This document shows, piece after piece, positions 1,514-55,585 of a DNA stretch of 64,000 nt (within the stretch, counting starts at the first letter, position 1; each line of letters begins with the position of its first letter). The notes below the pieces were generated by a model that was given only the letters and a program-made list of their open reading frames with translations, did no database searches and was not told the origin of the DNA. The stretch is from Dictyostelium discoideum (Eukaryota): positions 8,096,001 to 8,160,000 of the forward strand of contig CM000151.3 of the NCBI GenBank assembly GCA_000004695.1, in the 5' to 3' direction. Both the position numbers and the translations under genes were made by a program.

Positions 1514-2023
1514 ATTTTTTAATTTTAATTTTTTCTTAGGCATTTTTGGCAAATTAGTTGGTTGGAATTTTCACTCATAATTTTGTATACAGATATTTTT
1601 TTTTATTCCACATAACACAATAAACAATCACTTTTTTTGTTCTAAAATTACACTTTTATTTTTTATTTTTTTATTTTTGTTTAACCCAATTTTTAACCTA
1701 CTCGTTAACGTGGGAAGATTTTTTTTTTCCCAAGTTTCCAATTGTTTTTAAAATTTTATTTTTTTATTTTTTATTTTTTTATTGATGCCCTTTCAACTCT
1801 AAACGATTTTTTTTAAAAATTCAAACAAATTTTAAATTGCCGAATCGTTTTTTCAAGATCTGATTAGGCAAGTTTTTTCCACCAAAAGAATAAAAAAAAT
1901 TTTTAAAAAGTTGGGCTAAAGATATTTTAAAATATTTTTTTTTTTTTTTTTTGCAGTTTTAATTTTTTATTATAATTTTATTTTATTATATATATTTTTC
2001 AAAGAGTATACCACTAAATTAAA

Positions 2024-2948
2024 ATGTTAAAATTTATTCAAAAAATTTCAAAATCAAGGTGTAATTTTTTATATATATTTTTAATTTTAATTTTAATTAA
2101 TTTTTCAAATCCAAAAGTAAATTCTCAAACATTAAATAAAAATGAATATGATTGTTTAAAGAGTTTGTTAACCAATTTGGGATCAATCAATAAAGTTAAA
2201 ATTAATGCAACATCTTTAGAATATTTATTTTGTGGTACAATGGAATTTTCATCACCAAATGTTCAAATATTTTGTAATGAAGGTTCAATTTCAAAACTAA
2301 ATGTAGGACAAGCTAATTTCACATATACAGTAACTGATGATTTTTCATGTTTTAAAAATATGACTGAATTATCAGTGGATGATATTGTTTATGATAAAGA
2401 TAAATTTTATAATTAATATCCTCCAAATGCAAAAGAATTTTCATTTGATGGCACTGATTTAGTTTATGGAACTATTTCACCAATTATTAAAAAATATAAC
2501 TCAATGTCAATACAAAAAATACCAACAATAATTAAATTTTCTTGGTATTTAAATACAACTAAAATGTAGGTATAAAATAAATTATTATTATAATTAAAAT
2601 TATTTTTTTTTTAATCATTTTTATTTTCCTATTTAAAAAAAAAAAAAAAGTCATATAGAACTCTTTAGTACCTTTTAAAGGATATTTTTTAGTTTCATTT
2701 GATAATGATCTTGATGGTTCAAAAATTTGGGATTGTTCTATTTTAATTCATTCTCTAAATGTTCCATCATTAAATTTTATTACAGGCGATATTTCTTTAA
2801 ATCTAATGTTAGATTACGATCAATCATCATGGGGAAATATTACAACTTTTGGAGGAATGAGATATATGTCTCTAAGAGCTTCAGATTTATCATCTTTTCC
2901 ATTAGAGTTTTCAAATTTAAGATCTGAAGTTTTAAAATCTATGTATGT

Positions 2949-2992
<44 letters not shown>

Positions 2993-5621
2993 GACAAAAA
3001 AAAAAAAAAAAAAAGATATATTGAAATACCATTTTTAGCAGTATCTTCAAAGATTGATTTATCATTAATAGGAAAATCATTAGAATCATTATCTTTTTTT
3101 CATCCAAATAATTTTACATTTGGCGGCTTATTTCCAATAATTTTACCATCCAATGAAGCATTTAAAAAATTGGAATTTGTTAATGGAAATATTGAAACAT
3201 TTGATTTTTCATTATTTACAAATGTTGAAACATTATCATTAGAAAGTAATTTAATGTCAAATGATTTTCCTTCAAGTTTCAATAGAACAATTCATAGAAA
3301 ATTAAAACACCTTGATATAAGTAATAATAAAATGACAGGTACAATTGATGATTCATTTTGTCAATTAGAAATCATTGTTACAAATAATTCAATGACAGGT
3401 TTAATTCCAACTTGTTTTACATGTTTCTTTGGATTACCAGAAATAAATTTAGAAAGATATTTTATTGGAAATAATTTTATAAATTTAAATACACCTTCTT
3501 CACCATGTAAGTGTTTTATTTTTTATTTTTTATTTTTTATTTTTTATTTTTTATTTTTTTTTTTTAATTTGTTTTTTTTTACTAATTCCATTTATGATAT
3601 ATATATATATTTGTATTTAAGCAATTATCATTCCAAATATAGTTTTTAATAATACTTCAATTATTGAGGGTATTCCAATAGTTTTTTATGAATATTTAAT
3701 ATTTGGTGAAAATTTAGGTGGTAGTTGGGTTCCATTTACAGCTGTCTCTGATTCTGTAGGAACACCAATGATTTTTTCAATGATTGAGTCAAATAGTTTA
3801 TTTAAAGTATTTTGCTATGGAGAGCCCAAGTTTCCTTTAAACTTATCATACAGTAAGTCTAACCCAAACTATACATTTACTTTATCATTGGGAATACCAC
3901 CAATATTAAATTTAGTAGATTGGCAATCAAGTACAACTGATTTAGTAATAGATGGTTCATTCTTTACATATAATGGTTCTATAATTAATATTACAATTGG
4001 TAATGAAAATTGTTTCGTTACAAATACAAATTTTTATCAAATTAAATGTAAACTTTCAAATGTTATAGATCAATCATTAGAGGATATTATATCATATATT
4101 ACAATTGGTAATTTTAAAACTCAATTCACTTTAAATCCAGGTGTAATAAATACAATTTTAAATTGTACTGAAAATTATAATGATTGTAATGGTAATGGTA
4201 ATTGTTTATCTGATATTGGTAAATGTAAATGTGATTCAACTCATCAAGGTGATGATTGCTCAATCCCATATATAGAATGTTTAAATGATTGTAATAATGT
4301 TGGTCAATGTAATAATCAAACTGGTATTTGTTCATGCCCAATCACTCCTTACGAATGGATTGGTATTGATTGTTCAATTCCATTACATACAATATCAGCA
4401 GTTTCACCAAGTGATACCAATGGTGGTAGTGCTTCGATTTATGGTTGGTTTAGTAATAATCATACTGATCCACAAGTTTTCATTGGTAATAAACAATGTA
4501 TACCAATTTTTAGTATATCTGAAAGTGAAATTATTTGTAAAGCACCACCAGGTACAGGTTTAAAATCAGTAAGTGTAATTCAAAATTCAATCAATGTAAC
4601 ATCAAAAGATATTTATCAATATTATTCAAATGATAAACAATGTCCAAATCATTGTACATCGACATCAAATGGTATTTGTAATACAACAACTGGATATTGT
4701 AATTGTATCGGGAGATGGAGCGGTTATGATTGTAGTTTATATTCAAATCCAAGTGGTGGCGATAATAATAGTGGAATACCAGGATCAAATACAACAATAG
4801 ATGGTAATACTGGTAATACAAACATTACAAATCAACAAACAAATTATCAAATTTTAATTACAAAATTAATAGAGATAGATTTCAATGGTAATCAAATCAA
4901 TGAATATCTTTTATTAAATAAATGGTCAATAATTTCAAATATTAGTAAAACAGTTTACACATTCATTCAATCAATTCAAAATGATATATGTAATATTACA
5001 TATACAATTGAAGAAGTTAATAAAGATAGAGATGTATCATTTGCAGGTATTAATTTTAAATTAACAAGTGGATCAGTTAAAATGACAGTATCAATTGAAA
5101 ATTATCAATATTCAAGTAATTTAAATACATTACAATTACAAATGAAATCAAGTGTAAATGAAATTCAAACAAATAATGAAATGAATGATTGTAACGATGA
5201 TCAAATTGAAATTGATAGTACACCGAACCAAGATAATTCATTAAATTATATAACAATTAAAAAAGATGCAAAAGTTTTAAATGGTAGATTTATAGACAGA
5301 ATCGAAAGTGATGGTATATCAACATTTATGCAAACTGTGTTAGTATCAAAATCAAATGATTCAATTACAGTTGGTATGAATTTACCTCATTGTACAAAGA
5401 AATGTTTATTAGATCCTGACTTCTCTGTATTGATTAGTCCTGAATTCATTGATGAATGTGATGATAATAATCGTGAGTCATGGTTTTTACCAGTTGTGAT
5501 CGCTGTTCCAGTTGGAGGTCTAGCTGCAATTATTGCTATTGTTTTCATAATTTACAAAAAAAGATTTGTTGAAGCCCCATTAAAAAGAAAATTAAAATCA
5601 CTTAGAAATTATAAAAATTAA
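2024..5621 (+). pseudogene. Paralog A of an LRR / EGF-like / IPT-TIG single-pass membrane protein family; apparently disrupted; exons approx 2024..2565, ~2659/2693..2942, 3016..3506, 3622..5621
   Basis: Same four-exon architecture as the intact paralog C at 10401..13993, with near-identical nucleotide sequence in exons 1-4. TCA->TAA in exon 1 (2414..2416; C has aattCatatcc, A has aattAatatcc). A 1-nt insertion just after the predicted exon-2 acceptor creates an in-frame TAG (2656..2658). Exons 3-4 are fully open: signal peptide, LRR-like NxL repeats, CxCDSTHQGDDCS EGF-like, ISAVSPSDTNGGSASIYGWF IPT/TIG, TM LPVVIAVPVGGLAAIIAIVFIIY. Confidence 0.5.
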
Positions 5622-5941
5622 AATTGAAAATAAAAAAAGAAATAAAAAATAAAAATATCTAACCCAGGCATCTATAAAGTATAAAAAAAAAAAAAATAGT
5701 GGAAATAAAAAAAAAAAAAAAAAAAAGGTTTATATTAGAACAGATCCGAGCTGTGTTTAAAAAAAAAAAACTTTTTAATATTCAAAAGGTTTTAAAAAAA
5801 AAAAAATGGAAAAAATCAAAAAAAAAAAGAAAAAACAATGATGATTTTTTGTTTAAAAAAAAAAAACGTCTTTCCCAAACATAGATTTGTTTTCCAATAA
5901 ATTTCAAAACTAAAAAACAAAAACCCGAAAAGACACTCTTA

Positions 5942-7195: not shown

Positions 7196-9854
7196 ATATT
7201 AAATTAAACATTTAATTTTTTTTATTACTTAGAAATTTTGAAGTTCCGTTTAAATCTGTTAAAAAAATGTGCGATTTATCATCAATAGGTAAATCAATTC
7301 AAATTATTTCCTTTTCAAAATGTGGTAGAGATTTTTCATTTAATGGTTTAATGCCAATAATTTTACCAAATAACCAAGATTTTCAATATTTTTTTTTAAT
7401 TGGTGGCTATATTAAGAATTTTGATATTTTGCAATATAAAAGTGCTGAATATATTACATTAAGCAATAATTTGATGTCTGGTACCTTACCTTCAATTAAT
7501 AGTTTTAAATTCGGTAAATTAAAATATATTGATATTGGTTTTAATTTAATAACAGGTGAATTGGATGACTCATATTGTGAATTTGATATTATTGTAAACA
7601 ATAACTCAATGACTGGATTAATTCCAACCTGTTTTACATGTTTCTTTGGACTAACTGAATTAAATTTAAAATCGAGATTCATTGGTAATAATTTTACAAA
7701 TTTAGATCAACCTTCATCTCCATGTAAGTTGAAGTAGTATTTTTTAACTTTTTTTTAAAATTAAAAAGATTGAATAAATTTGAAAAAAAATTACTGACTA
7801 TATTTTATTTATAATAATAAAGCAATTATTTCACCAAATTTGATTTTCTCAAATATTGAAATATTTCAAGGTCAACCTCATTATAAATATTATATCTTTG
7901 GTGAAAATTTAGGTGGGGCTTGGATTGATGAATCAAATGCAGAGATTATTGGCTTTGATGTGAAATTTAGGGTAATAAAACCAAATAAACTAATATCACT
8001 TTACTCTCTTTCATCATTTTCTAGTATTGTAACATTTTCATATAGTAGAATAAATTCAAATTATAGATTTACTTTATCAGCAGATTTAATAACACCAAAA
8101 TTAATAAAGGTTGAATGGGTTAGTAATTCTCAAGATTTAGCTTTTGAAGGTTTTTATTTTTCCTATAATAAATCAATAATTAACATTTCAATTGGTGATG
8201 TTAATTGTCAAGTTACAAGTAGTACTTTTTATAATATTAACTGTACTCTTTTGGCACCAATAGATCTTACTTTAATTGATATTGTATCATTTATAACAGT
8301 TGGTAATTTAACAACTCAGTTCACTTTAAATCCAGGTGTTACAAATAATTTACTATATTGTATTAATGGATGTGGTGGAAATGGAATTTGTTTTTCCGAT
8401 ATTGGTAAATGTAAATGTGATTCGACTCATCAAGGTGATGATTGTTCATTACCATATATTGAATGTCCAATTAATTGTACCAATTTAAGTGTATGTAATA
8501 ATGTAACTGGTGAATGTTCATGTCCATCATTCTTAATTTGGAGCGGTATTGATTGCTCATTTCCATTACATACAATATCTGCAGTTTCACCAAGTGATAT
8601 CAATGGTGGTAGTGCTTCAATTTATGGTTGGTTTGGTAATATTCATAATGACCCACAAGTTTTCATTGGTACTAAACAATGTATACCAATTTATAATATA
8701 TCTGAAAGTGAAATTATTTGTAAAGCACCACCAGGTACAGGTTTAAAATCAGTAAGTGTAATTCAAAATTCAATCAATGTGACATCAAAAGATATTTATC
8801 AATATTATTCAAATGATAAACAATGTCCAAATCATTGTACATCGACATCAAATGGCATTTGTAATACAACAACTGGATATTGTAATTGTATTGGAAGATG
8901 GAGCGGTTATGATTGTAGTTTATATTCTAATCCAAGTGGCGGTGGCGATAATAGTGGTGGATTACCAGGATCTAATACAACAATAGATGGTAATACTGGT
9001 AATACAAATATTACACTGGTAATACAAATATTACAAATCAACACACAAATTATCAAATTTTAATTACAAAATTAATAGAGATAGATTTCAATGGTAATCA
9101 AATCAATGAATATCTATTATTAAATAAATGGTCAATAATTTCGAATATTAGTAAAACAGTTTACACATTCAATCAATCAATTCAAAATGATAAATGTAAT
9201 ATCACATATACAATTGAAGAAGTTAATAAAGATAGAGATGTATCATTTGCGGGTATTAATTTTAAATTAACAAGTGGATCAGTTAAAATGACAGTATCAA
9301 TTGAAAATTATCAATATTCAAGTAATTTAAATACATTACAATTACAAATGAAATCAAGTGTAAATGAAATTCAAATAAATCATGAAATGAATGATTGTAA
9401 CAATGATCAAATTGAAATCAATAATACACCAAATCAATATAATTCATTAAATTATATAACAATTAAAAAAGATGCAAAAGTTTTAAATGGTAGATTTATA
9501 GACAGAATCGAAAGTGATGGTATATCAACATTTATGCAAACTGTATTAGTATCAAAATCAAATGACTCAATTACAGTTGGTATGAATTTACCTCATTGTA
9601 CAAAGAAATGTTTATTAGATCCTGATTTCTCTGTATTGGTTAGTCCTGAATTCGTTGATGAATGTGATAATGATCGAAAATCCTTTTTTTTACCAGTTGT
9701 TATAGTGGTTCCTATTGTTTTTTTAATTTTAATAATTATTTTTGTAGTTATTACTATAAAAAAAAGATATGTTGAGATGTATTTATTTAAATCAAAAATA
9801 AAACAATTGGCAAACTTAAAAAATATTAAAATAAATAAAAAAACAGAATTATAA
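6198..9854 (+). pseudogene. Paralog B of the LRR/EGF/IPT-TIG membrane protein family; frameshifted in exon 4; exons approx 6198..6706, 6854..7153, 7233..7723, 7823..9854
   Basis: Exon junctions are phase-consistent (TT|GTATGT...ag|T; AT|GTAAGT...ag|A; T|GTAAGT...ag|CA). A 20-bp tandem duplication (ACTGGTAATACAAATATTAC x2 at 8995..9034), absent from paralogs A and C, shifts the frame so translation terminates at 9061..9063. The downstream 9064..9854 (IPT/TIG, TM, tail) remains open only in the +2 frame. The N-terminal exons are much more diverged from A/C than A and C are from each other. Confidence 0.55.
8995..9034 (+). repeat. 20-bp x2 tandem duplication causing the frameshift in paralog B
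   Basis: ACTGGTAATACAAATATTAC occurs twice consecutively here, but once at the homologous positions in paralogs A (~4803) and C (~13177). Confidence 0.85.
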
Positions 9855-10400
9855 TAAATAAAAATTTGATTAACAGGATTCATTTTAAAAAATTTTTAAA
9901 TATCTTCCAAACAAATCCAAATATCCATTTTCTTTTTTTTAAAAACAAATCAACACTGAAAATTCTTAAGTTTGTACGGCCGTACACAAAGTAATTTTAT
10001 GCACACCTATTTTACCTTTATTTTCCCTTTATTTTTACATTTTTTTTTTTTTGGTGAATTTTTTAGAAAAAAAAAAAAAAGAAATAAAAAAAACGAAAAA
10101 AAAAAATCAAACACCGCAATTACCTTCCGGCAAAACATTAAAATAAAAAAATAAAAATAAGATATTTTTTTTTAATATTTTCATTTTTGTGTCTGTTCGG
10201 TGTTTCAACCAAAATTTTAATCTATTAATCGTTTTGTTTAAAAAAAAAAAAAATGTTAAAATGTTGGGAAAAAGTTTTTTTTTTTTTTTTTTTAATTTTA
10301 ATTTATTTTATTTTATAATAATTTTATTTATTTTATTTATTTTATTTAATTTTAATTAATTTTATTTTATTTATTTTTCAAAATATATCTCCAAATTAAA

Positions 10401-11337
10401 ATGTTGAATTTTATTCAAAAAATTTCAAAATCTGGGTGTAATTTTTTTTATTTATTTTTAATTTTAATTTTAATTAATTTTTCAAATCCAAAAGTAAATT
10501 CTCAAACATTAAATAAAAATGAATATGATTGTTTAAAGAGTTTGTTAACAAATTTGGGATCAATCAATAAAGTTAAAATTAATACAACATCTTTAGAATA
10601 TTTATTTTGTGGTACATTGGAATTTCTATCACCAAATGTTAAAATATTTTGTAATGAAGGTTCAATTTCAAAATTAAGTGTAGGACAAGCTAATTTCACA
10701 TATACAGTAACTGATGATTTTTCATGTTTTAAAAATATGACTAATTTATCTGTTGATAATATTGTTTATGATAAAGATAAATTTTATAATTCATATCCTC
10801 CAAATGCAAAAGAATTTTCATTTGATGGCACTGATTTAGTTTATGGAACTATTTCACCAATTATTAAAATTTTTGACTCAATGTCAATACAAAATATACC
10901 AACAATAATTAAATTTTCTTGGTATTTAAATACAACTAAAATGTAAGTTTAAAATTAATTATTATTATTATTATTTTAATGAATACTAATAAAATTTTTT
11001 TTTTTATCATTTTTATTTTTCCTATTTAAAAAAAAAAAAGTGTAATAGCCTCTTTCGTACCTTTTAAAGGATATTTTTTAGTTTCATTTGATAATGATCT
11101 TGATGGTTCAAAAATTTGGGATTGTTCTATTTTAATTCATTCTCTAAATGTTCCATCATTAAATTTTATTACAGGTGAAATTACTTTAAATCTAATGTTA
11201 GATTACGATCAATCATCATGGGGAAATATTACAACTTTTGGAGGAATGAGATATATGTCTCTAATATCTTCAAATTTATCATATTTTCCATTAGAATTTT
11301 CAAATTTAAGATCTGAAGTTTTAAAATCTATGTATGT

Positions 11338-11380
<43 letters not shown>

Positions 11381-13993
11381 CAAAAAAAAAAAAAAAAGAT
11401 TTATTGAAATACCATTTTTAGCAGTATCTTCAAAAATTGATTTATCATTAATAGGAAAATCATTAGAATCATTATATTTTTTTCATCCAAATAATTTTAC
11501 ATTTGGTGGTTTATTTCCAATAATTTTACCATCAAATGAAGCATTTAAAAAATTGGAATTTGTTTATGGAAATATTGAAATATTAGATCTTTCATTATTT
11601 ACAAATGTTGAAACATTATCATTAAAATGTAATTTAATGTCCAATGGTTTTCCTTCAAGTTTCAATAGAACAATTCATAGAAAATTAAAACACATTGATA
11701 TAAGCAATAATAGTATTACAGGTACAATTGATGATTCATTTTGTCAATTGGAAATCATTGTTACAAATAATTCAATGACAGGTTTAATTCCAACTTGTTT
11801 TACATGTTTCTTTGGATTACCAGAAATAAATTTAGAAAGATATTTTATTGGAAATAATTTTATAAATTTAAATACACCTTCTTCACCATGTAAGTGTTTT
11901 ATTTTTTATTTTTTATTTTTTATTTTTTTATTTTAATTTGTTTTTTTTTACTAATTCCATTTATGATATATATATATATTTGTATTTAAGCAATTATCAT
12001 TCCAAATATAGTTTTTAATAATACTTCAATTATTGAGGGTTCAATAGTTTTTTATGAATATTTAATATTTGGTGAAAATTTAGGTGGTAGTTGGGTTCCA
12101 TTTACAGCTGTCTCTGATTCTGTAGGAACACCAATGATTATTTCAATGATTGAGCCAAATAGTTTATTTAAATTATTTTGCAATGGAGAGCCCAAGTTTC
12201 CTTTAAACTTATCATACAGTAAGTCTAACCCAAACTATACATTTACTTTATCATTGGGAATACCACCAATATTAAATTTAGTAGATTGGCAATCAAGTAC
12301 AACTGATTTAGTAATAGATGGTTCATTCTTTACATATAATAGTTCTATAATTAATATTACAATTGGTAATGAAAATTGTTTGGTTACAAATACAAATTTT
12401 TATCAAATTAAATGTACACTTTCAAATGTTATAGATCAATCATTAGAGGATATTATATCATATATTACAAATGGTAATTTAATAACTCAATTCACTTTAA
12501 ATCCAGGTGTAATAAATACAATTTTAAATTGTACTGAAAATTATAATGATTGTAATGGTAATGGATATTGTTTATCTGATATTGGTAAATGTAAATGTGA
12601 TCCAACCCATCAAGGTGGTGATTGCTCTTTGCCATATATAGAATGTTTAAATGATTGTAATAATGTTGGTCAATGTAATAATCAAACTGGTATTTGCTCG
12701 TGTCCAATCTCTCCTTATGAATGGAGTGGTATTGATTGTTCAATTCCATTACATACAATATCTGCAGTTTCACCAAGTGATACCAATGGTGGTAGCGCTT
12801 CAATTTATGGTTGGTTTAGTAATAATCATACTTATCTACAAGTTTTCATTGGTAATAAACAATGTATACCAATTTATAATATATCTAAAAGTGAAATTAT
12901 TTGTAAAGCACCACCAAGTACAGGTTTAAAATCAGTTAGTGTAATTCAAAATTCAATCAATGTAACATCAAAAGATATTTATCAATATTATTCAAATGAT
13001 AAACAATGTCCAAATCATTGTACATCGACATCAAATGGCATTTGTAATACAACAACTGGATATTGTAATTGTATTGGAAGATGGAGCGGTTATGATTGTA
13101 GTTTATATTCAAATCCAAGTGGTGGTGGCGATAATAGTGGTGGATTACCAGGATCAAATACAACAATAGATGGTAATACTGGTAATACAAATATTACAAA
13201 TCAACAAACAAATTATCAAATTTTAATTACAAAATTAATAGAGATAGATTTCAATGGTAATCAAATCAATGAATATCTATTATTAAATAAATGGTCAATA
13301 ATTTCAAATATTAGTAAAACAGTTTACACATTCATTCAATCAATTCAAAATGATAAATGTAATATCACATATACAATTGATGAAATTAATAAAGATAGAG
13401 ACACAACTTTCGCAGGTATTAATTTTAAATTAACAAGTGGATCAGTTAAAATGACAGTATCAATTGAAAACTATCAATATTCAAGTAATTTAAATACATT
13501 ACAATTACAAATGAAATCAAGTGTAAATGAAATTCAAACAAATAATGAAAATGATTGTAACAATGATCAAATTGAAATCAATAATACACCAAATCAAGAT
13601 AATTCATTAAATTATATGACAATTAAAAAAGATGCAAAAGTTTTAAATGGTAGATTTATAGACAGAATCGAAAGTGATGGTATATCAACATTTATGCAAA
13701 CTGTGTTAGTATCAAAATCAAATGATTCAATTACAGTTGGTATGAATTTACCTCATTGTACAAAGAAATGTTTATTAGATCCTGATTTCTCTGTATTGGT
13801 TAGTCCTGAATTCGTTGATGAATGTGGTGGTGATAATGATCGAAAATCCTGGTTTTTACCAGTTGTTATAGTGGTTCCTATTGTTTTTTTAACCTTAATA
13901 ATTATTTTTGTAGTTATTACTATAAAAAAAAGATTTGTTGAGATGTATTTATTTAAATCAAAAATAAAACAATTGGCAAACTTAAATAAATAA
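10401..13993 (+). CDS. Paralog C (intact) of the LRR / EGF-like / IPT-TIG type-I membrane protein family; exons 10401..10942, 11041..11331, 11399..11889, 11991..13993
   Basis: Signal peptide (MLNFIQKISKSGCNFFYLFLILILINFSNPKVNSQ). Cys-containing N-terminal domain. LRR-like repeats (LSLKCNLMSNGFPSSFNRTIHRKLKHIDISNNSITGTIDDSFCQLEIIVTNNSMTGLIPTCF). Two EGF-like modules (CNGNGYCLSDIGKCKCDPTHQGGDCSLPYIECLNDCNNVGQCNNQTGICSCP). IPT/TIG-like module (ISAVSPSDTNGGSASIYGWF...ICKAPPSTGLKSVSV). C-terminal TM (LPVVIVVPIVFLTLIIIFVVITI) and short basic tail. Donors ATG|GTAAGT, AT|GTATGT, T|GTAAGT with phase-consistent acceptors. Confidence 0.7.
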
Positions 13994-38783: not shown

Positions 38784-39122
38784 CAGTAATATTTTATAAT
38801 ATTACTGCTCGGGTTTATGTGGTGCCCATGGGAAAATAAAAAAAAATTTTTTAAAAACAATTGAAAATATCTTGGTATGCCAATCAACCAGGCAAAAAAA
38901 AAAATAATGAAAAAAATAAAAAAATAAAAATTATAAAATCTAAAATAAAATAAAAATTATAAATTTTAAGATAAAATAAAAATAAAATAAAATAAAATAA
39001 AAAAAAATAATGAATTACAATTCCATATTATTAGATTATATTATTTTTAGTTTAATTATTTACAATTTTATTGATATATTTATTTTTTTTTAAATTATGA
39101 ATTATTATTTTTATTATTGATT

Positions 39123-39753
39123 TTATCTTTTTCCACCTCTACCACCACTTCTACCACCTCTACCACCACCTCTGCTACCACCTCTACCACCACCACCACC
39201 ACCTCTACTACTGCTTCCACCTCTATTATAACCTTTACTTTTACTTGAATATACGGTTTTAATATCATGTTTATTAATGTGTAATGTGCCATTTGAAAAT
39301 CTACCAATTTTGAGACCTGGTTCATCATCTTTATTATTATTACTATTTGATTTAATTGATTTCTTTATTGGTTTTTCACCTCTTAAAATACTCTTTTTTT
39401 TTTTTTTATAATAAAATAATAAATATTAGTAGGCTTTTAAAAATTGTTTAGAAAAAAAAAAGTTTTTATATGAAATTTACTTCTGTAATTAAATTTTCTT
39501 GTTTTTCTTTTTCAATTTTATTATTTATGATGGCTTTTTTAAAAGGTAAAAAAGTTTTTTTAACTTTTCTACCACTTTTTATTAAATCATCTTCAGCTGC
39601 ACTTCTTTTAACTCTTCTTGCTACAACTTTTAAACCTAAATTTCTAATCTCTTTTGATGCATCTTTAAAATATTGTCTTTGTTCATCACCAACTTGACCA
39701 CCGACTTTAAATGGTGTACTTTTATTACCACCTCTACCACTTTTGCTACTCAT
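39123..39753 (-). CDS. RGG-box (Gly/Arg-rich) probable RNA-binding protein, hypothetical; exons (minus) 39753..39481, 39392..39123
   Basis: N-terminal MSSKSGRGGNKSTPFKVGG and C-terminal GYNRGGSSSRGGGGGGRGGSRGGGRGGRSGGRGGKR* RGG repeats. Intron GAA|GTAAAT...aaaaag|AGT, phase 0. The 39095..39328 ORF in the track is an antisense-frame artefact of the RGG repeat. Confidence 0.5.
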
Positions 39754-39905: not shown

Positions 39906-40498
39906 CCAACTTTCTTTTTAATAAATTATTTAATTTATTAATTACTTAATGTTAATAAAAAAAATATTAATTAATTCTTACTTTTATGGTAATATCGAAT
40001 CTCTAAAATTAAATGGTGAGATTATTTTTTTTTTTTATTTTTATATATATTATTTTTTATTATTTTTATTTTTTTTATTTTTTTTTATTATTTTTTTATT
40101 TTTTTTATTTTTTTTGGAATGAAAAATAAAATTATTAAATTTGAAATTTATAGTTTTTTTTTAGGTTTTTTTTTTATTTATATTAAACTATATAAATTAT
40201 ATTATATTTTTAATAATTTTCTTATTTTATTTTTTAAGATCTCATTTTTTTGAAAAAAAAATACAAAACAAGATTGTGTTTGAAAAAAAAAAAAAAGGCA
40301 CATCTTCCAATTTTTATTCTTAGTAAAAAATAGGTCCAAAAAAAAAAAAAAAAAAAAAAACAAATTAAATAAAACAACACACAAATTAAAAAAAAAATTT
40401 TTATTTTATTTATTTATTTTTTAATTTGTATTTTTTTAATTCATTTTTTTTTTTAATTTATTTTTTATTTATTTAATAACATATAATTTTAAATAAAA

Positions 40499-40957
40499 AT
40501 GACAAGTAAATATTGTTGCCAACATGATGAATTTTCTTTAAGAAAGCTTAAAAAAAGTGAAGATTTCACTCTTTACCTTGATGAATTACTAGATCAAGAT
40601 GAGTTTCTAAAGATTCAGCCTGGTTACTGCACAGAGGAATGTAAACAAAAAATGAAGGAGATTTATAGAATTACATTCGAACGTTATATTGAGACTATAA
40701 ACAAATATTACAGTGACAGCAGAATTTTTGAATATAACTTGGGAAAAAATCCTCGAGGATGTGATATTTGGATGTATCGAGAATTTTTCAGTACTCCACC
40801 CCCTATCTCTCCCCAAGATGAATATGCTAGAATGGTCATAAAAGCAATGAAAGTTGGTATTAAAGATGGAAAGCCTGTTAGATTATGTGAATTGCCACCT
40901 GGTGTACAATGTGATTTTGATGCAAAAAACCTACCTGATTCTGAAGAAGATGAATAG
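40499..40957 (+). CDS. Hypothetical 152-aa protein with atypical codon usage (Cys-pair rich: CCQHDE...CTEEC...C..PPGVQC)
   Basis: Intact ATG..TAG ORF. Codons such as CAG CCT GGT TAC TGC ACA GAG and CGA GGA TGT are unusual for this genome. No family recognised by eye. Confidence 0.45.
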   Translation: MTSKYCCQHDEFSLRKLKKSEDFTLYLDELLDQDEFLKIQPGYCTEECKQKMKEIYRITFERYIETINKYYSDSRIFEYNLGKNPRGCDIWMYREFFSTPPPISPQDEYARMVIKAMKVGIKDGKPVRLCELPPGVQCDFDAKNLPDSEEDE

Positions 40958-41149
40958 AAAAATAAGTGTTAATTAAATAAAAAGAACTGTTTTAAATTTT
41001 TTTATTTTATTTTACTTTTATTTTTTTTTATAACTCTTATATAAGAGAAGTAGTTTATTTTTTTTTTAATTTTTAATATTTTTTTTTTATTTCTTTTAAT
41101 TATTTTTTTTTTTCTTTTTTTATTTCTTGCACCTCTTTTAGGTGCAAAG

Positions 41150-41365
41150 TTACCATATATATCGTTGAGCTTCTTGTGCAGTTGCAAAGGTTCTAATTAG
41201 CTCTTGTTTTTCTCTAAGTCTTTGCAATCGTCTTCTTTCACTTTCTTCTTGCATCAACCTTCTTCTTTCTTCTTGTTCAGCCAATCTTTGTTGTGTTTTT
41301 TTAATTTTTATTAATTTTACCGTTTCAGGGTCTGCTTCAATTTCTTTTTTTTGATGGGCACCCAT
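41150..41365 (-). CDS. Hypothetical 71-aa charged coiled-coil ORF (QRLAEQEERRRLMQEESERRRLQRLREKQELIR)
   Basis: GC-richer ORF within the island. No homology assignable. Confidence 0.25.
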   Translation of the reverse strand: MGAHQKKEIEADPETVKLIKIKKTQQRLAEQEERRRLMQEESERRRLQRLREKQELIRTFATAQEAQRYIW

Positions 41366-41399
41366 CGTTTTTTTTTAAAAAGTAAACCTAATGATTTAT

Positions 41400-41880
41400 A
41401 CATGTTTATATTTAATAATTGAGAATTTTTATTTTATGACATTGGTTTTGAATTATTTTTAAAAAAATCATTTTAAATTTTCTTTGATTCGTTACATTTT
41501 TGTTTCTATCTAATGATCATTTTCCAATGATTTTATATTAATGGTCATTGGAAAATCCTTTAGCTAGGAATTCTATAGAGAATCATTGAGTAAATAATGG
41601 TTTCTATAGGAAATCTTTAAACAACCATTAAAAATCGTTGATTTTTCTTTGGCTCAATTTTTAATAGTTTTCTATGTAATGGTCACATCTATACCGTTAT
41701 CAATCTAAAACCATTGGAAATAACAATATCTAATGATTTTCAATAAAGTTCAATAAAATTATAAAAAAATGAAAATAATGGATTTCATTAAAAGAATTTT
41801 TTTAAAATAAGATTAAAAATTTTATTTAAAGAATTTTTTTATTGATTTCCATAAGGAAACCATTATATGATTTTTTTTTT
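41400..41880. repeat. Array of degenerate about 20-bp repeats containing CCATTGG / AATGGTC cores
   Basis: tccaatgattttatattaatggtcattggaaaatcc; aatggtttctataggaaatc; aaccattaaaaatcgttgat; taatggtcacatctataccg; aaaccattggaaataac; ggaaaccattatatgat. Followed at 42037..42072 by (GAAATTAATAAC)3 flanked by gatttgatttct direct repeats. Confidence 0.5.
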
Positions 41881-43056
41881 TTGTTTTTTTTTTTTTTATA
41901 AAAATGAGAAAACTATTGGTACTTTATTATAATTAAAATAAAATAAATATTAATAAATGTAAAACTTTATAAAATAAATATTATTATAATAAAAGTAATA
42001 ATAAGGATAGATTGATTTGATTTCTTGAAATTAATAACGAAATTAATAACGAAATTAATAACGAAATTAATTTGATTTCTAAAAAATGTTTATTTTTTTT
42101 TCTATTTTTAGTGTAAAAAAGGGGGAAATAATTTAATTCATCAGTGAGCTGTCATTTTTAGTTTTGAACGTTTTGCATCATCAGATTCCAATGTTTGACT
42201 ATAAATATTTTCTTTACTTTTAATCTCTTGTTTAATTATTCTCTATCACGTTTTGGTTTCATTAGACCCTTGTTATATTCCAATGCCGATGATTCATTAA
42301 TACGGTCAAACTCTTTTTGAAAAGGTGTAGGTGGTACTTTCTTTAATTTTTCGGTGAACAAAACCGATGATGATTTATCACCAGTTATAGTTTTTGAAAG
42401 TTTTTTCCTATCGATTGGCATCTCCAATGTTGAACCTTTTTTTTATAATTTTCTTTTAAATCCATTCAAATTCATTTTTTTAAAAAAAATTATTCAATCA
42501 TTTTTTTAAAAAAAAAAAAATTTAAACATTAATTAAAATTATATTTTAGAAATAAAAAAGAAAAAAATGGAGCTTTTAATTCCATTAAGTTTATTGGGAT
42601 TATATTTATTTTCAGGGACAAGAGATTCAGTTCATAAGGGAGAAGTTAAAGATGACTTGAAAGAGAAACCTATAAAAGTTAATTTTAATTTAACTGACTC
42701 TACAAAAGTTGACCATAAAACTCATCTCAAACAGTACAGTTCATTAAAACCAGGTGACACATTGGAAATATTATAACAAAAACATTTAGATCACTCTACG
42801 AAAGATTTAAAACACCCAGTATCCATTATCAATGATAAGTCTGACAGTAAAATTCATCTTAAACGAACATACCGGAAAAGTTAAAGTTAAATTTATTGAT
42901 CATACAATTCGTAGTGATGTTAGACCAATCTCATTTGGAATTAATAAAAAATAATTTATTTTCTAAAAAAAAAAAAAAAATTCTCTTTATTATTTATTAT
43001 TTATTTTTAAAATTAGTTTTGTTTTTTTAAAAAAAAAAAAAAAAGAAAGAAAAAAA

Positions 43057-44300
43057 ATGGGTATCAGTGATCAAATCAATAGTAATTTATCAAGTCAATC
43101 TCCATTTACTGTAAGTACAAACCCAAGTGATTCAATGTTTCTTCCAACAAACAGAATTGCAAAAACAGCAGATTGGAAAGAGGAGAAAAAATATTACTAT
43201 CCAAAAGAATCGATTCAAAGTATTTATGAAGGTACAACAGTTCGTATCGTAATCGATAAACAAAATGGTAGACTTTATGGTTTGGAAATGGTAGTTGAAA
43301 TTGGACCATTGACTGCAAATGGTGCTACATTTACACGTCTCTGTAGGGATGTTGCTCATTCGATGGCCTATAGTGTTTCAATATGGAATGGTAATAATGA
43401 AATTCATAGACTTCATATGGATCATGAAAGAATTGAGATGGTTTTAACTAAATTAAAACATGAAAGGGACATGGAAGATAAGATGGCCGGTTACTATGAT
43501 GATGCGACACGTACTGCATTGGGTGCAACAAAACAAAAATTAATTTTTGATTTGAATTTCTTTCATACTGTCCACACTTCTGATGCACTCTATTTAAATG
43601 CCTGGCATTGAAATACACTTATCAAATTAAGATCAATCCTTTAAGAAGATGGGTAGAAACCGATGGTACTGATCCAAAAGCTAATGATTTCAAAGTTTAT
43701 CTTCGTGCTGATATTATTCATACACCACAGGATGAATATCGTATAGTTCATAATACTATCAACACTGGTACTGGTATTTTTTCACCAATTGAACATACAG
43801 AGATGAAAGAGCGTGTAGTACTCAACGTTGGTGAATCAAAACATTATGTTCAATTAACAAACATTATTGGTAATGGTCGTTCTTATTTTGTTGTTTTAAG
43901 AAGATTGGCAGACACTGAAAATCCAAAAGCACCAAGATATGATGATTTCATGCCATGGGAAAATATGCGTTTATTACATGCCGGTAATAAGGAAGTTCAT
44001 TTACCACATAATAATATGATGGATTGTTTTAAACATTTAAAGCATCGTTTTCATTTTGATGCATCCTACAATGATGATAAATCTCCAAACAGTATGAATA
44101 TTTATGGCTTCAGTTTTTCAGCTAATCCTATCGATGTCAAAAATCGAACAGGTTGTTTTTCATTCTCACAAGCAAACAATCTTCAATTGGAAGTAACAAC
44201 AAAAACTCTAACTGAACCATGGGTACTCGATTTTTATACAGCATCCACTCAAATCATTCAACAATCTGGTAACACAGCAAAAACAATTCTCCATTATTAA
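43057..44300 (+). pseudogene. NCLDV-type (double jelly-roll) major capsid protein homologue, split by a frameshift at about 43600..43611 (ORFs 43057..43611 and 43608..44300)
   Basis: ORF1 QNGRLYGLEMVVEIGPL..VSIWNGNNEIHRLHMDH..KLIFDLNFFHTVHTSDALYLNAWH* resembles PBCV-1/FV3 MCP R(N/S)GD(L/Y)I..(V/L)V..L / IGGQRIDKHYNDW / PLIFFF..GLALPLIALQYHEVK. ORF2 continues the motif (EIK)YTYQIKIN after a frame change. C-terminal IYGFSFSANPIDVKNRTGCFSFSQANNLQLEV resembles HLYAYAFSL..PSGSCNFSRIDNA.L.L of NCLDV capsids. Combined length about 414 aa. Confidence 0.7.
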
Positions 44301-44440
44301 AAAAAAAAATAAAAAAGTATAAAAATAAAATTTTTTTTTTTTTTTATTTAAAATTGATAAAGAATTTTTTTATTAAAAATTAAGTCTATCGTTTCGTCGT
44401 TATCTTCTTTATCTTCGTTATCGTTGTCGATGGCATTGGT

Positions 44441-45443
44441 CTATAGATTATCTACTGATTTTTTAAAGATTTTTTTCTTTAGTTTTTTCATTTCTTTCTT
44501 TTTAGTTTTTTCCTCCTGAATTAACCACCACCCAGGGCATACTGAATCAGTGGGTAATGAACCCCTCTTTATATCAAAACGAGGCAAATCTTTAAATTGA
44601 TGGTATAGATTCGTATACTCATAAGGAGTGTATCTAAAGATTTCAAATTCTTTAAAAGAACTACCGATAGTAGACTTGTGTTTGGATGATAAAAACAAAT
44701 TTTTAAATTCAAACCATTATCACCTGGCGATAAAACTTCATGAAGTAATAATGTTTCTTTAAATTCCCATAGAAATATGTGATGATTCCTATCATTTTCA
44801 TTACAAACTCTACAATTCATTAGCTCCCGTTTCCTTAGAAGATCGATTAAAACCTTCCAATGTTCATCAATTTTCTCAAGTTTATGATTAAGAAAAAAAG
44901 ATTCCAGAGCAATTTTTATATGATGTAGCCGATTATCAAATCTATAAAGATGTTCTCAAACTTAATACAGTAAAAATTGGAAAGGATTTGGATGGAAAAC
45001 AATGTTTTATTCATGAGTTTGGTTCTTATGGTGACCGTATGGTTGGAGCATTGGTTGGTAGTGATCTCTTGGGTGGTTATAGTACTTTCTTTGGAATAAT
45101 TGTTTCGGTTTTCATAAAGAATAAGGACATTTCATTAAAATAATTCCTTCCATTGGTTAAAATCGATAGAGATTATACTGTTCCTGAAATGTTTGTTCTT
45201 TACAAAGAACTTAGATCAACTGGTCAATTTGCAAAATCACCAAATCTTTACAAATTTTATTGTTCATTACTTTGGCTCTTGGTAAATATTCATGAACAAC
45301 TTAGTGACGATGGTAAAAATGGTTTCGAATCTCAAGCGATCAACTTACCTCTTTGCAATTATATATTGGTGAATCTAAACACAGCGATTCCTTCGAAATT
45401 CTTTATTTTTTTTTTTTTTTTAATAACATCGCTCAATTTATAA
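44441..45443. other. Decayed GC-richer ORF fragments on both strands between the MCP relic and the tRNA (44441..44820 minus, 44905..45140 plus, 45153..45443 plus)
   Basis: Overlapping frameshifted minus-strand ORFs (CRVCNENDRNHHIFLWEF... / ...YTPYEYTNLYHQFKDLPRFDIKRGSLPTDSVCPGWWLIQEE). Plus-strand fragment ...GKQCFIHEFGSYGDRMVGALVGSDLLGG, reminiscent of a minimal nucleotidyltransferase hG[GS]..G....SD motif but with the second Asp missing. Followed by KIDRDYTVPEMFVLYKELRSTGQFAKSPNLYKFYCSLLWLLVNIHEQL. Confidence 0.3.
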
Positions 45444-45486: not shown

Positions 45487-45559
45487 GGGGATGTAGCTCA
45501 GATGGTAGAGCGCTCGCTTAGCATGCGAGAGGTAAAGGGATCGATACCCTTCTTCTCCA
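45487..45559 (+). tRNA. tRNA-Ala (anticodon AGC), 73 nt, with a non-canonical T-loop
   Basis: GGGGATG acceptor with G3:U70. A box TAGCTCAGATGG. Anticodon arm CTCGC-TTAGCAT-GCGAG. T-arm AAGGG-ATCGATA-CCCTT (A54; B box GGGATCGATACC deviates from GGTTCGANTCC). 3' acceptor CTTCTCC (T6.T67 mismatch) plus discriminator A. T6 terminator follows immediately at 45560..45565. Confidence 0.8.
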
Positions 45560-53299: not shown

Positions 53300-54768
53300 T
53301 TAAAATTTATTTCTTGAAATCCAATCACCAGCAATTGGACCTAATCTTTGATGATCAAAACCTAAAGCATCAGTTAAAGATATTGAATAAGGAACAATTT
53401 CTTTACAAAGTTCTAAGATTTGAATTGAAATTGATTCAGATTGTTGAGGTGAGATGAATTGATATTTTAAGAACCAATTATCACGATCTATAATATTTAA
53501 TACATAGAGTGAAACTAAAAGTTTGAGAGCATTTCTAGTGTTTTCATCAGGATAATTGTTAACAGCGGCAATGAATTTATCGAGGATAGTTTTTTCAGTA
53601 TAAGCAACACCTAAACGAACGATATAGGTACCATTATCATTCCAAGCGTCCATAATTGCAGAACCTTCAGAGACGGAATCACTTAATTTCTCAGTTACAT
53701 ATTGAATGGTTTGATTTAATCTTGAATTTAAAGCTTCCAATAAGAAATCGAAAGATCTAATGTAATTTCTATCAGTTCTTTGTTTTTGTTCATTTGAAGG
53801 TTGTTGATAATCTGTTGGTGGATTCTTTCTAGATTCGGATAACATGAATTTGGCAACTTGTTGATATAATAGTATATTATCACCTTCGAAAGTTGTATAG
53901 ATTTCAGTCTCTGATTTGAAATTACCAATTAAATTCTCACTCAAGAACCCTTGACCACCACAAGCCTCTCTACACTCTTGAAGACAATCACGAGTTGACC
54001 AAGAACTATAAGCCTTTAAAGCCGATGCTAAAATATGAATTTCCTTCTCCTTTTTCTCTTTTTCAGACAATAAATCCAATAGATAATTATTTGAGAAATG
54101 GGTGGCGTAGGTGTTTGCCAAATGTGGAATTAAACGTTTTCTATGCGAGGAATAGGATATTAATTGTTTCTCGAATTTTGGATCTGAACCTTGGAATTGT
54201 TTTCTAGAGAATGAATATCTAATTGCCGTGGTCAAGCCAACTGAATTAAATGCAACTGACCCAATTGAAACAATGTAACGACCAAGTACCAATGCACCAA
54301 TGGTATTGGCAAAACGTTTATTTGCAGGATTAATTGGTGATGTGTAAATGCCTGCTTTGTTAACTCCACCAAATCTATTCAATAATTGGTCTCTTGGTAT
54401 ATGTAAATCTTTAAACATGATTCTACCATTATCAACACCATTCAAAGCCATCTTTACACCACAATCTCTAATATCAACACCCTTCACTAGACTACCATCA
54501 TCATTTCTAATTCTTGCAACAAATGCATGAACTCCTTCCATCTTACCACTAACTTTTAATTGTGCCATAATAATTGTATGTGTTGCATTCTTTGCTGATC
54601 CACCGATAAAATATTTTTGACTTGTAATAGTTGGTGAATTTATAATAAATTCTTCTTTATCATGATCATATTCTGCAATAGTTTCAATTGATTGTACATT
54701 TGATCCATGTCCTAATTCTGTTAATGAAAAACATCCAATAATTTCTAATTTTTCTACCTCTATATATA

Positions 54769-54823
<55 letters not shown>

Positions 54824-55585
54824 CAATAAATAAATAAATAAATAAATAATAATTGAAAAAATTACTTACTTTCAGTATATTTCTTTCTTTGTTCTTCTGA
54901 TCCTAAAAATACAATTGATGCACCAAATAATGAAAAGTGCACGCCCATTAAAGTTGTAACACTTGGGTTTTGGAATCTATAACCTTGTGTGAAAACTGCA
55001 ATTTTTTTGGGATTTCTGCAAATATTGATTGGGAAAAAAAAAAAAAAAATTTAAAAAAAAAAAAAAAAGATATTTTATTTTATTTTGAAAATCAGTAAAC
55101 TGCAAATTTTTTGGAAAAAAAAATGATAACTGGGAGAATTGGTGTTGATACCATCAAAAAAAAAAAAATGAAAAAAATAAAAAAAAAAAGGTGGTGTTTG
55201 GTGAAGGTGTTGAGAGGTTTGTTTTTTTTACTCTCTCTTTTAAAAAAAAAAAAAATTAATATTAAAAAATTTACCTTTCTAAATCAATTAAACCAAAATG
55301 TTTTGTTGCTAATTCCATTAATTTTTTAAATTGGTTAAATGTTAATTCTCTATCTTGTTCAAGTGAAAGACCAAAAGATGGTTGTAATAAAAAATTTTCA
55401 TTATTCCAAAAAGTTGATAAAGATTCTTTTAATTCTAGTTCATATGGAAATAAATATTTATTTAATAAATTGGCATCGAATGATTGTTTAATTTCCATAT
55501 ATTGTGGATCAATCTCTGATAAACAATCATTATTTGATAATAAATGTAGTGTATTAATTTGAATTCTTCTAATTGTTGATTCCAT
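53300..55585 (-). CDS. Acyl-CoA oxidase (peroxisomal ACOX family); exons (minus) 55585..55275, 55015..54870, 54759..53300
   Basis: ACOX motifs CFSLTELGHGSNVQSIET, VHFSLFGASIVFLGSEEQRKKY, and a C-terminal ACOX domain (...LYQQVAKFMLSE...). Junctions GAAAG|GTAAAT...atttgcag|A and GAAA|GTAAGT...tatatag|AG are phase-consistent. 638 aa. Confidence 0.85.

Follow-up and report, generated by a model that had tools for sequence, protein, structure and literature searches.

A dictyostelid-only Cys-His protein gene of Dictyostelium discoideum as a probable survivor of a multi-copy endogenous virus-like element

Introduction

Genes of endogenous elements resembling large DNA viruses are a known phenomenon in protists. 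In dictyostelids, Polintons or polinton-like elements have been reported from D. fasciculatum, P. pallidum and A. subglobosum (PMC3671162, PMC4642659), and a BLAST-based screen of the D. discoideum strain AX4 for virus-like genes returned mainly FNIP-repeat proteins (PMC5203793). The subject of the present work is a stretch of 64,000 nucleotides of D. discoideum DNA (contig CM000151.3 of assembly GCA_000004695.1, forward-strand positions 8,096,001 to 8,160,000), referred to here in its whole length as the window, and within it an open reading frame (ORF) at 40499–40957 (+) that encodes a member of a dictyostelid-only protein family marked by a C-x-H...C-x3-C signature. Taken as a whole, the evidence makes it probable that a multi-copy endogenous virus-like element contributed this ORF, as one of its accessory genes, and that the ORF survives as the sole intact gene of a deleted remnant of ~5 kb. 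D. discoideum is a major model organism, usually described as lacking known viruses, and the literature searched describes none; through the ORF, a family of orphan proteins is linked to a multi-copy element that encodes a capsid. The same literature offered nothing on the gene or UniProt identifiers and assemblies discussed below, nor on such an element in D. discoideum, papers beyond that library being possible.

A small gene with element-type codon usage

The ORF runs intact from ATG to TAG (152 aa), in exact agreement with the coordinates and frame proposed in an earlier note that was made from the sequence alone. Its translation is 100% identical to that of DDB_G0277457 of strain AX4 (XP_642658.1 / EAL68691.1, UniProt Q8MN51, ‘hypothetical protein’), which has long been annotated as a hypothetical gene, and the 64-kb window matches the D. 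discoideum assembly GCA_054883475.1 with 99.8% identity. Non-host codon usage, also claimed in the earlier note, is borne out, as the codon adaptation index (CAI) of the ORF (0.483) lies below that of every one of the 16 host ORFs of the window (0.699±0.059, minimum 0.591), while its GC content at third codon positions (GC3) is 0.224, compared with 0.135±0.040 in the host ORFs. In both measures the ORF is indistinguishable from the genes of the element described below (CAI 0.528±0.077, GC3 0.221), which are separated from host genes at p ~1e-5 (Mann–Whitney test). Among the codons that had been singled out as characteristic, CAG (once), GAG (four times) and CGA (twice) are indeed used, whereas CTG does not occur in frame (0).

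Word-indexed and exhaustive profile searches of 1.84 billion representatives identified 27 relatives, and all named relatives are dictyostelid (D. discoideum, D. cf. discoideum, D. firmibasis, D. citrinum, D. dimigraforme, D. purpureum, Polysphondylium violaceum and Tieghemostelium lacteum). AX4 itself carries eight or more members at varying loci. The subfamily of the window ORF counts four AX4 copies, of which three (DDB_G0277457, DDB_G0268734 and DDB_G0279121) have kept their full length; an AX4 copy of the family, DDB_G0288733, is decayed. The relatives are thus multi-copy, variable in position and limited to Dictyostelia, and an amoebozoan housekeeping orthologue, which the earlier note had named as refuting its reading, was not found among them. 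Two residues, C44 and C48, are invariant in the family, and no aligned member with an N-terminus lacks C7 or H9. The dN/dS ratios of deep family pairs (0.16–0.35) imply that the family encodes a selected protein and record purifying selection in its older history.

The ORF has no match in Pfam, PHROGs or PDB sequences, and the family profile finds nothing below E 0.4 among PDB sequences; matches to MavC (E 0.42) and NEIL3 (E 0.048) were judged to be noise. A metagenomic match of 964 aa (P0037) was dismissed as spurious, given that only a repeated ‘DKFPEIIALC’ motif aligns, without CxxxC. Profile–profile comparison with eight other small gene families of the element returned probabilities below 1% and hence no hidden paralogue.

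Full-length copies of the element

In the genomes of wild D. discoideum, D. cf. discoideum and D. dimigraforme, homologues of the ORF are found in gene-dense regions. Full copies of the element are represented by the loci L003, L014 and L015 (D. cf. discoideum), L004 (D. discoideum) and L016 (D. dimigraforme); the element was sampled as ±10-kb segments, in which ~65 ORFs were scanned. The gene order comprises a partner gene (−), the family member (+), a coiled-coil gene of 84–101 aa (−), present behind the family gene in all full-length elements, several orphan genes, a 773-aa gene, a 129-aa gene, a capsid-like gene of 414 aa (+) and a VLTF3-like gene (−). In three genomes, family members are located 3–11 genes from the capsid-like gene. 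The other side of the element encodes proteins matching YqaJ (1.6e-37), the AEP_C962R primase domain (23.8 bits, cutoff 23) and deoxynucleoside kinase (dNK, 2.5e-11).

The viral hallmarks score close to the cutoffs of their profiles. The intact 414-aa capsid-like copy reaches 23.6 bits against Pfam Capsid_N, below the cutoff of 24 (E 4.2e-5, residues 56–193), and its residues 342–401 give a weak, below-threshold match to the MCPv3 of Paramecium bursaria chlorella virus 1 (PBCV-1; E 0.037), which stands in the expected order with the Capsid_N match. The intact VLTF3-like copy attains 25.0 bits against Pox_VLTF3 (PF04947), equal to the cutoff of 25 (E 1.7e-5), and covers only profile positions 95–164. 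Searches of viral contigs with the capsid-like protein found no relatives, and IMG/VR together with a collection of 5.8 billion proteins contained nothing similar to the element outside Dictyostelium.

Copies of the element occupy different loci in several genomes, with several identical ones per genome, often beside retrotransposons. It is concluded that it represents a multi-copy endogenous element of large-DNA-virus type in group-4 dictyostelids. The synteny of the family gene with the capsid-like and VLTF3-like genes in three species, together with its element-type codon usage, supports the earlier suggestion of a co-transferred viral gene, inasmuch as the ORF belongs to the same virus-like element as the capsid relic of the window. 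It is very probable that the ORF is an element-derived, co-transferred gene, which would have integrated together with the capsid-like gene before the remnant was heavily deleted.

The element was also encountered in rearranged form. The locus of DDB_G0268734, the AX4-type chromosome-1 paralogue (L018, GCA_054883475.1 JBTAPE010000039.1), is a mosaic of rearranged element fragments, among them inverted duplicates of the coiled-coil gene region, located between retrotransposon integrase and reverse transcriptase genes. Chimeric gene models built from element fragments in other genomes are found among P0008, P0024, P0059 and P0062; P0008 joins the dNK N-terminus to the middle of a family protein, P0024 a YqaJ-like N-terminus to the N-terminal domain of the family, and P0059 the first 52 aa of the capsid-like protein to an unrelated coiled coil. 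Such models indicate that many element remnants are heavily scrambled. At L003, a RAI1/DXO-like nuclease gene (4544–5914 (+), 3.4e-43) lies beside the element, adjoined by a DDE_Tnp_4 (Harbinger-type) transposase gene. The nuclease was dropped as an element gene on account of its host-like codon usage (CAI 0.742, GC3 0.109), and it is likely to be a host gene or a recent capture.

The remnant in the window

The island in the window (~40350–45400) is an internally deleted copy of ~5 kb that is colinear with the full elements. In comparison with L014, window positions 40398–41917 correspond to 1862–3479 (76–84% identity), 42130–44879 to 9066–11824 (96%) and 45143–45381 to 12970–13209 (99%). The ORF is situated at the left edge of the island, as the earlier note had stated, similarity to the full-length elements starting at ~40347–40398 (40347 for L003, and 40397–40398 for L018, L004 and L014), 100–150 nt 5′ of the ATG. 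The ORF consequently keeps only ~100–150 nt of its own upstream region. This left edge (40347–40498, +), the retained promoter-proximal part of a bidirectional intergenic region, holds a block, ‘AATTTGT...AATTCA-T11-AATTTATTT...ACATATAATTT’, that an upstream alignment shows to be conserved 5′ of family members.

The ORF is the sole intact gene of the island, all others being deleted, truncated or broken, with the partner and five internal genes gone. It is followed by a small coiled-coil ORF of 71 aa (41150–41365, −), which corresponds to the first 70 aa of the 84–101-aa gene (tblastn, 90–91% identity to L003/L014), and by the end of the left colinear block (41573–41917; L014 3110–3479, 76% identity), beyond which ~5.6 kb of the element with five genes is deleted. 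The 213-bp stretch that replaces this deletion contains, at 42027–42071, a perfect 12-nt tandem repeat of GAAATTAATAAC in 3–4 copies. Further to the right lie an N-terminal fragment (~117 of 470 aa), with stops, of a large minus-strand element gene (42131–42475, −; tblastn to L014 8008–9417 and L004 19459–20424) and a copy of the 129-aa gene preceding the capsid-like gene that is broken by a stop and a frameshift (42567–42954, +). The capsid-like pseudogene (43057–44300, +) is 95% identical to the intact 414-aa copies and carries a frameshift near 43605; it still matches Capsid_N (6e-4), and DDB_G0277467 is the AX4 annotation of its C-terminal part. The island closes with a disrupted C-terminal fragment of the VLTF3-like gene (residues ~293–470; 44351–44883, −; tblastn) and, as its right end, a fragment with stops (residues ~85–259) of a 366-aa element gene (44874–45397, +).

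Conserved residues and predicted structure

The protein encoded by the ORF (18 kDa, pI 5.0, grand average of hydropathy −0.78) has neither a signal peptide nor a transmembrane segment. Its cysteines are located at positions 6, 7, 44, 48, 88, 130 and 138, and its only histidine at position 9. The paired cysteines on which the earlier note had relied differ in their conservation. The ‘CTEEC’ motif corresponds to C44-x3-C48, that is, to the two invariant residues of the whole family, and in ‘CCQHDE’ it is C7 and H9 that are conserved family-wide, whereas C6 is replaced by R, W or K in most paralogues. The supposed C-terminal ‘C-x6-C’ proved to be C130-x7-C138 and is kept in one subfamily only.

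A structure model of the ORF protein was obtained with a mean predicted local distance difference test score (pLDDT) of 87.6 and a predicted template modelling score (pTM) of 0.78; it is mainly helical with one beta-hairpin. An earlier model from 14 sequences (pLDDT 58) was too poor, and the Foldseek PDB search made with it was discarded. Structure prediction, which had been proposed as a route to a family assignment, thus delivered a confident model but no assignable family, as no fold neighbour was found and the best match among viral structures (BFVD, vaccinia included) had an E value of 2.6.

In the model, an extended segment bears C7 and H9 at a spacing of i,i+2, and the beginning of helix 46–73 bears C44 and C48 at i,i+4. 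The chances are about even that C7, H9, C44 and C48 constitute a Cys3His metal site, probably for zinc, a reading that would agree with the zinc-binding protein considered in the earlier note; per-member scans of the ORF and 21 family members revealed no curated zinc-binding Pfam match. Such a site would pin the N-terminal segment to the start of the long helix. The protein may be pictured as a small soluble cytosolic alpha/beta protein in which VGI-x-DGK-x-VRLC would form a beta-hairpin module and LPDSEEDE an acidic tail.

The partner gene

Directly 5′ of the family member, on the opposite strand, the element carries a partner gene of 260–465 aa. This head-to-head arrangement was found in L003 (three times), L004, L011 (D. 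purpureum), L012 (D. firmibasis), L014, L016, L017 and, weakly, L013; in T. lacteum, a partner head-to-head with a family member is weakly detected. The partner is composed of a signal peptide at its N-terminus, a conserved ~280-aa domain, a hydrophobic segment and a tail of low complexity, and it has no relatives among Pfam families or PDB sequences. No partner sequence exists upstream of the window ORF.

Conserved cysteines are also present in the partner (L004 8272–9666 (−), with homologues in L003, L011, L014, L016 and L017). A block of its sequence, ‘GIY[VL]IF...[LV]YIGKS...IEQ.LL..F...NGF’, recalls GIY-YIG nucleases, and some paralogues contain long ‘NYARQGA..GYEAWKEGA’ repeats; the assignment as a GIY-YIG nuclease finds no support in Pfam, since none of seven homologues matches PF01541, even at E up to 10. 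The intergenic region between partner and family gene bears a tandem unit of ~25 nt, ‘AATTTGTTAATTCA’, followed by T11–13, with 3–4 copies in L004 9860–10000 and L014 1800–1950 and ~1.5 copies in the window at 40420–40470. These repeats may serve both genes as a common bidirectional promoter element.

The pair is present three times within one element, with paralogues 27–45% identical. In the parent element, the family gene would be transcribed divergently from the shared intergenic region together with a rapidly diverging signal-peptide/transmembrane partner, and the pair would be tandemly amplified and diversified within single elements. This arrangement suggests joint action of the two proteins, for which the likelihood falls somewhat short of even. 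Their common role may lie at the virus–host interface or in morphogenesis, as in the multigene families of large DNA viruses.

Alternative explanations

Several observations weigh against regarding the ORF as a relic of virus-derived DNA. With respect to the viral origin, the family profile finds no relatives among viral contigs, and no homologue of the family turned up in the sequenced viruses, viral contigs and viral structure sets searched, so that the orthologues in giant-virus genomes for which the earlier note had suggested looking were encountered neither in giant-virus nor in other viral data. Owing to this lack of homologues, the viral origin rests on linkage and on hallmark matches at Pfam thresholds. 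PolB, a D5-type helicase, an A32 packaging ATPase and an integrase of its own are all missing among the ~65 ORFs of the sampled ±10-kb segments, so that the element may be derived from nucleocytoplasmic large DNA viruses (NCLDVs), polinton-like or of another class. In D. purpureum, D. firmibasis and T. lacteum, moreover, the pair is flanked by ordinary host genes (kinase, WD40, PTEN-like, actin and P450), which is likewise compatible with a host family of old standing that the element captured at a later stage. With respect to the relic state, the ORFs of the AX4 paralogues DDB_G0277457 and DDB_G0268734 differ at 3 of 459 nt (0.7%), and their flanks are 4–11% diverged (5.3% in the flanks versus the ORF, Poisson p=8e-8); in the adjacent small ORF of the same pair, 16 of 216 nt differ (7.4%, Fisher p=3e-6). 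The low divergence of the ORF could reflect maintenance, which would speak against a mere relic.

The alternative that survives best, in itself unlikely, is that the window copy has been domesticated, i.e. that it is element-derived and now held by host selection, for example as a regulator or in interference against related elements. Domestication would explain why the ORF is the only complete gene of the island and agrees with the full length of three of the four AX4 subfamily copies, with the retention of ~100–150 nt of conserved upstream sequence and with the contrast in divergence between the ORF on the one hand and its flanks and the small ORF on the other. The intactness, however, is weak evidence, as the probability that an ORF of 459 nt escapes the lesion density of the neighbouring genes is ~0.25–0.69. 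Furthermore, non-synonymous substitutions predominate among the few recent ones: 12 of them, against 2 synonymous, separate the window copy from L003 (omega=0.17 is rejected, p=0.0012, and neutrality is not), 2 and 1 separate it from L018, and both P37L, which affects a near-invariant proline of an F-P motif, and E50Q are unique to the window copy. Since synonymous and non-synonymous sites are both quiet and the segments have mosaic histories, gene conversion or recombination accounts for the low divergence no less well than selection; the divergence of L014, for example, amounts to 14% in the ORF and to 7% in the one that follows. The conserved partner is gone, and the AX4 copy DDB_G0288733 is decayed.

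Against the suggestion of the earlier note that the gene is still functional stand the lost partner, P37L and the 12:2 ratio of recent changes, albeit in a sequence that is far less diverged than its flanks. That the window copy is currently functional appears rather unlikely; it is most likely a recent, still uninactivated relic rather than a gene that serves the host. A bolder scenario, which is doubtful, would combine a recently active capsid-encoding DNA element, of which wild strains have many near-identical intact copies, with a new, tandemly diversifying two-gene module of the virus–host interface built on a hitherto unseen metal-stapled fold, intact AX4 copies such as DDB_G0277457 being kept because they would still act, for example in exclusion of or interference with related elements.

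Quite unlikely, in turn, is a host-born family, according to which the pair would be dictyostelid-specific, e.g. a fast-evolving recognition or secretory module, and would have been captured by, or merely adjoin, mobile or viral DNA. The restriction of the family to Dictyostelia, from T. lacteum and P. violaceum to D. discoideum, its absence from the viral data searched and the host-gene surroundings of the D. purpureum, D. firmibasis and T. lacteum copies are all compatible with this view. It is opposed by codon usage, which groups the ORF with element genes and not with host genes, by the high copy number and variable positions, often in retrotransposon-rich regions, and by the order with the capsid-like and VLTF3-like genes, which is fixed in three species. 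Moreover, no conserved orthologous locus was seen, and the pairs that stand alone might just as well be ancient remnants of the kind found in the window.

The earlier note had also considered a redox protein. A redox shuttle, in which C44-x3-C48 would act as a thiol–disulfide relay oxidizing virion or partner cysteines, is suggested by analogy with A2.5L, the CxxxC protein of the poxvirus cytoplasmic disulfide pathway, and is very unlikely here. The invariant C-x3-C at the start of a long helix, the large-DNA-virus type of the element and the conserved cysteines in the partner ectodomain are in line with this idea, but a relay leaves the equally conserved C7 and H9 unexplained, and the histidine favours a metal site. 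The ORF lacks a CxxC motif, and its model shows no thioredoxin fold and no thioredoxin-like matches; no Erv1/ALR-type oxidase, thioredoxin or glutaredoxin gene is present among 45+ ORFs of the sampled element parts, and no viral structure, those of vaccinia included, resembles the model. The signal peptide of the partner would in addition imply its oxidation in the endoplasmic reticulum. Finally, a chance ORF or annotation artefact without a protein product, with which the silence of the literature searched might agree, is effectively refuted by the conservation pattern, namely dozens of homologues with deep dN/dS of 0.16–0.35, along with a chance expectation of ~0.005 ORFs of this length per window at a GC content of ~22% and the confident predicted fold.

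Surroundings of the island

The search for terminal repeats and target-site duplications yielded only A/T low complexity, and a scan for promoters and terminators, which used bacterial models irrelevant to a eukaryote, remained below shuffled expectation. A search for the locus in other strains, anchored on a lipase gene, retrieved the same assembly and short Logan contigs only. The only tRNA gene of the window, tRNA-Ala(AGC) at 45487–45559 (+), is positioned ~90–105 bp past the right end of the island (45381–45397). As tRNA genes are targets of Dictyostelium retroelements, the truncation point of the island may be related to a tRNA-associated insertion or deletion. In GCA_054883475.1, a 591-aa gene model (ACTFIT_004874) spans the capsid relic and tRNA-Ala and is probably an annotation artefact.

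The left neighbour of the island (39095–39753, −) encodes, in two exons, a basic protein of 180 aa with a weak FSAF1-like match and is apparently an ordinary host gene; the 600-nt interval between it and the island consists of poly-T/poly-A tracts. An acyl-CoA oxidase gene (53303–55017, −) lies ~8 kb to the right of the island, and a paralogous acyl-CoA oxidase gene (36% identity; L002 11393–13351 (+)) adjoins the degraded DDB_G0288733 on another chromosome, which is probably a coincidence.

Significance

The link of the Cys-His family and its partner to a capsid-encoding Dictyostelium element appears to be new, as do the definition of the conserved Cys/His tetrad and the absence of a fold neighbour. 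Remnants of the element also reside in reference strain AX4, namely the capsid relic DDB_G0277467 and no fewer than eight members of the family, and the link gives such ‘hypothetical’ genes an origin. The domain with the C-x-H...C-x3-C signature and its partner constitute a marker for mapping such elements across dictyostelids, and a small, confidently modelled protein without fold neighbours is a target for structural work. As the window copy is probably a decaying relic, its direct consequence for the host may be nil.

Comparison with known systems

At the level of the single protein, small zinc-binding domains such as knuckles, ribbons and treble clefs offer a parallel, as the small soluble protein of the family offers four potential ligands that are invariant or nearly so (Cys, His, Cys and Cys), with i,i+2 and i,i+4 spacings that put the side chains on one face. 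Poxvirus A2.5L and pA151R of African swine fever virus (ASFV) likewise belong to large DNA viruses and are small (~75–151 aa), cytosolic and marked by a conserved pair of close cysteines; they differ in that no BFVD similarity and no sulfhydryl oxidase of the element were found, and in that the histidine and the distal cysteine of the family are unexplained by the comparison.

At the level of the element, Polintons/Mavericks and polinton-like viruses are comparable as integrated capsid-encoding DNA elements in dictyostelids. Their defining genes, however, encode a protein-primed PolB together with an rve integrase, or else TVpol-S3H, and none of these was found beside the Cys-His family, where nearby integrases are those of retrotransposons only. 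The MGF110, MGF360 and MGF505 multigene families of ASFV share no sequence or fold similarity with the family, and the amplified unit is here a head-to-head gene pair with a putative role in host interaction; they do resemble it in tandem amplification, in the divergence of paralogues (25–45% identity within one element in the Cys-His family) and in consisting of small lineage-only proteins.

The closest likeness is to the endogenous NCLDV-type elements of protists. The present element differs from these in that its hallmarks score at Pfam thresholds, that PolB, the A32 ATPase and the D5 helicase are unseen in the sampled parts, and that neither the capsid-like protein nor the Cys-His family has a relative in viral databases. 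It shares with them the linkage to genes for a capsid-like protein with a putative N-terminal jelly-roll signature, a VLTF3-like factor, a C962R-type AEP, YqaJ and dNK, as well as non-host codon usage and a multi-copy state in which some copies are decayed or internally deleted, as is the one that carries the ORF of the window.

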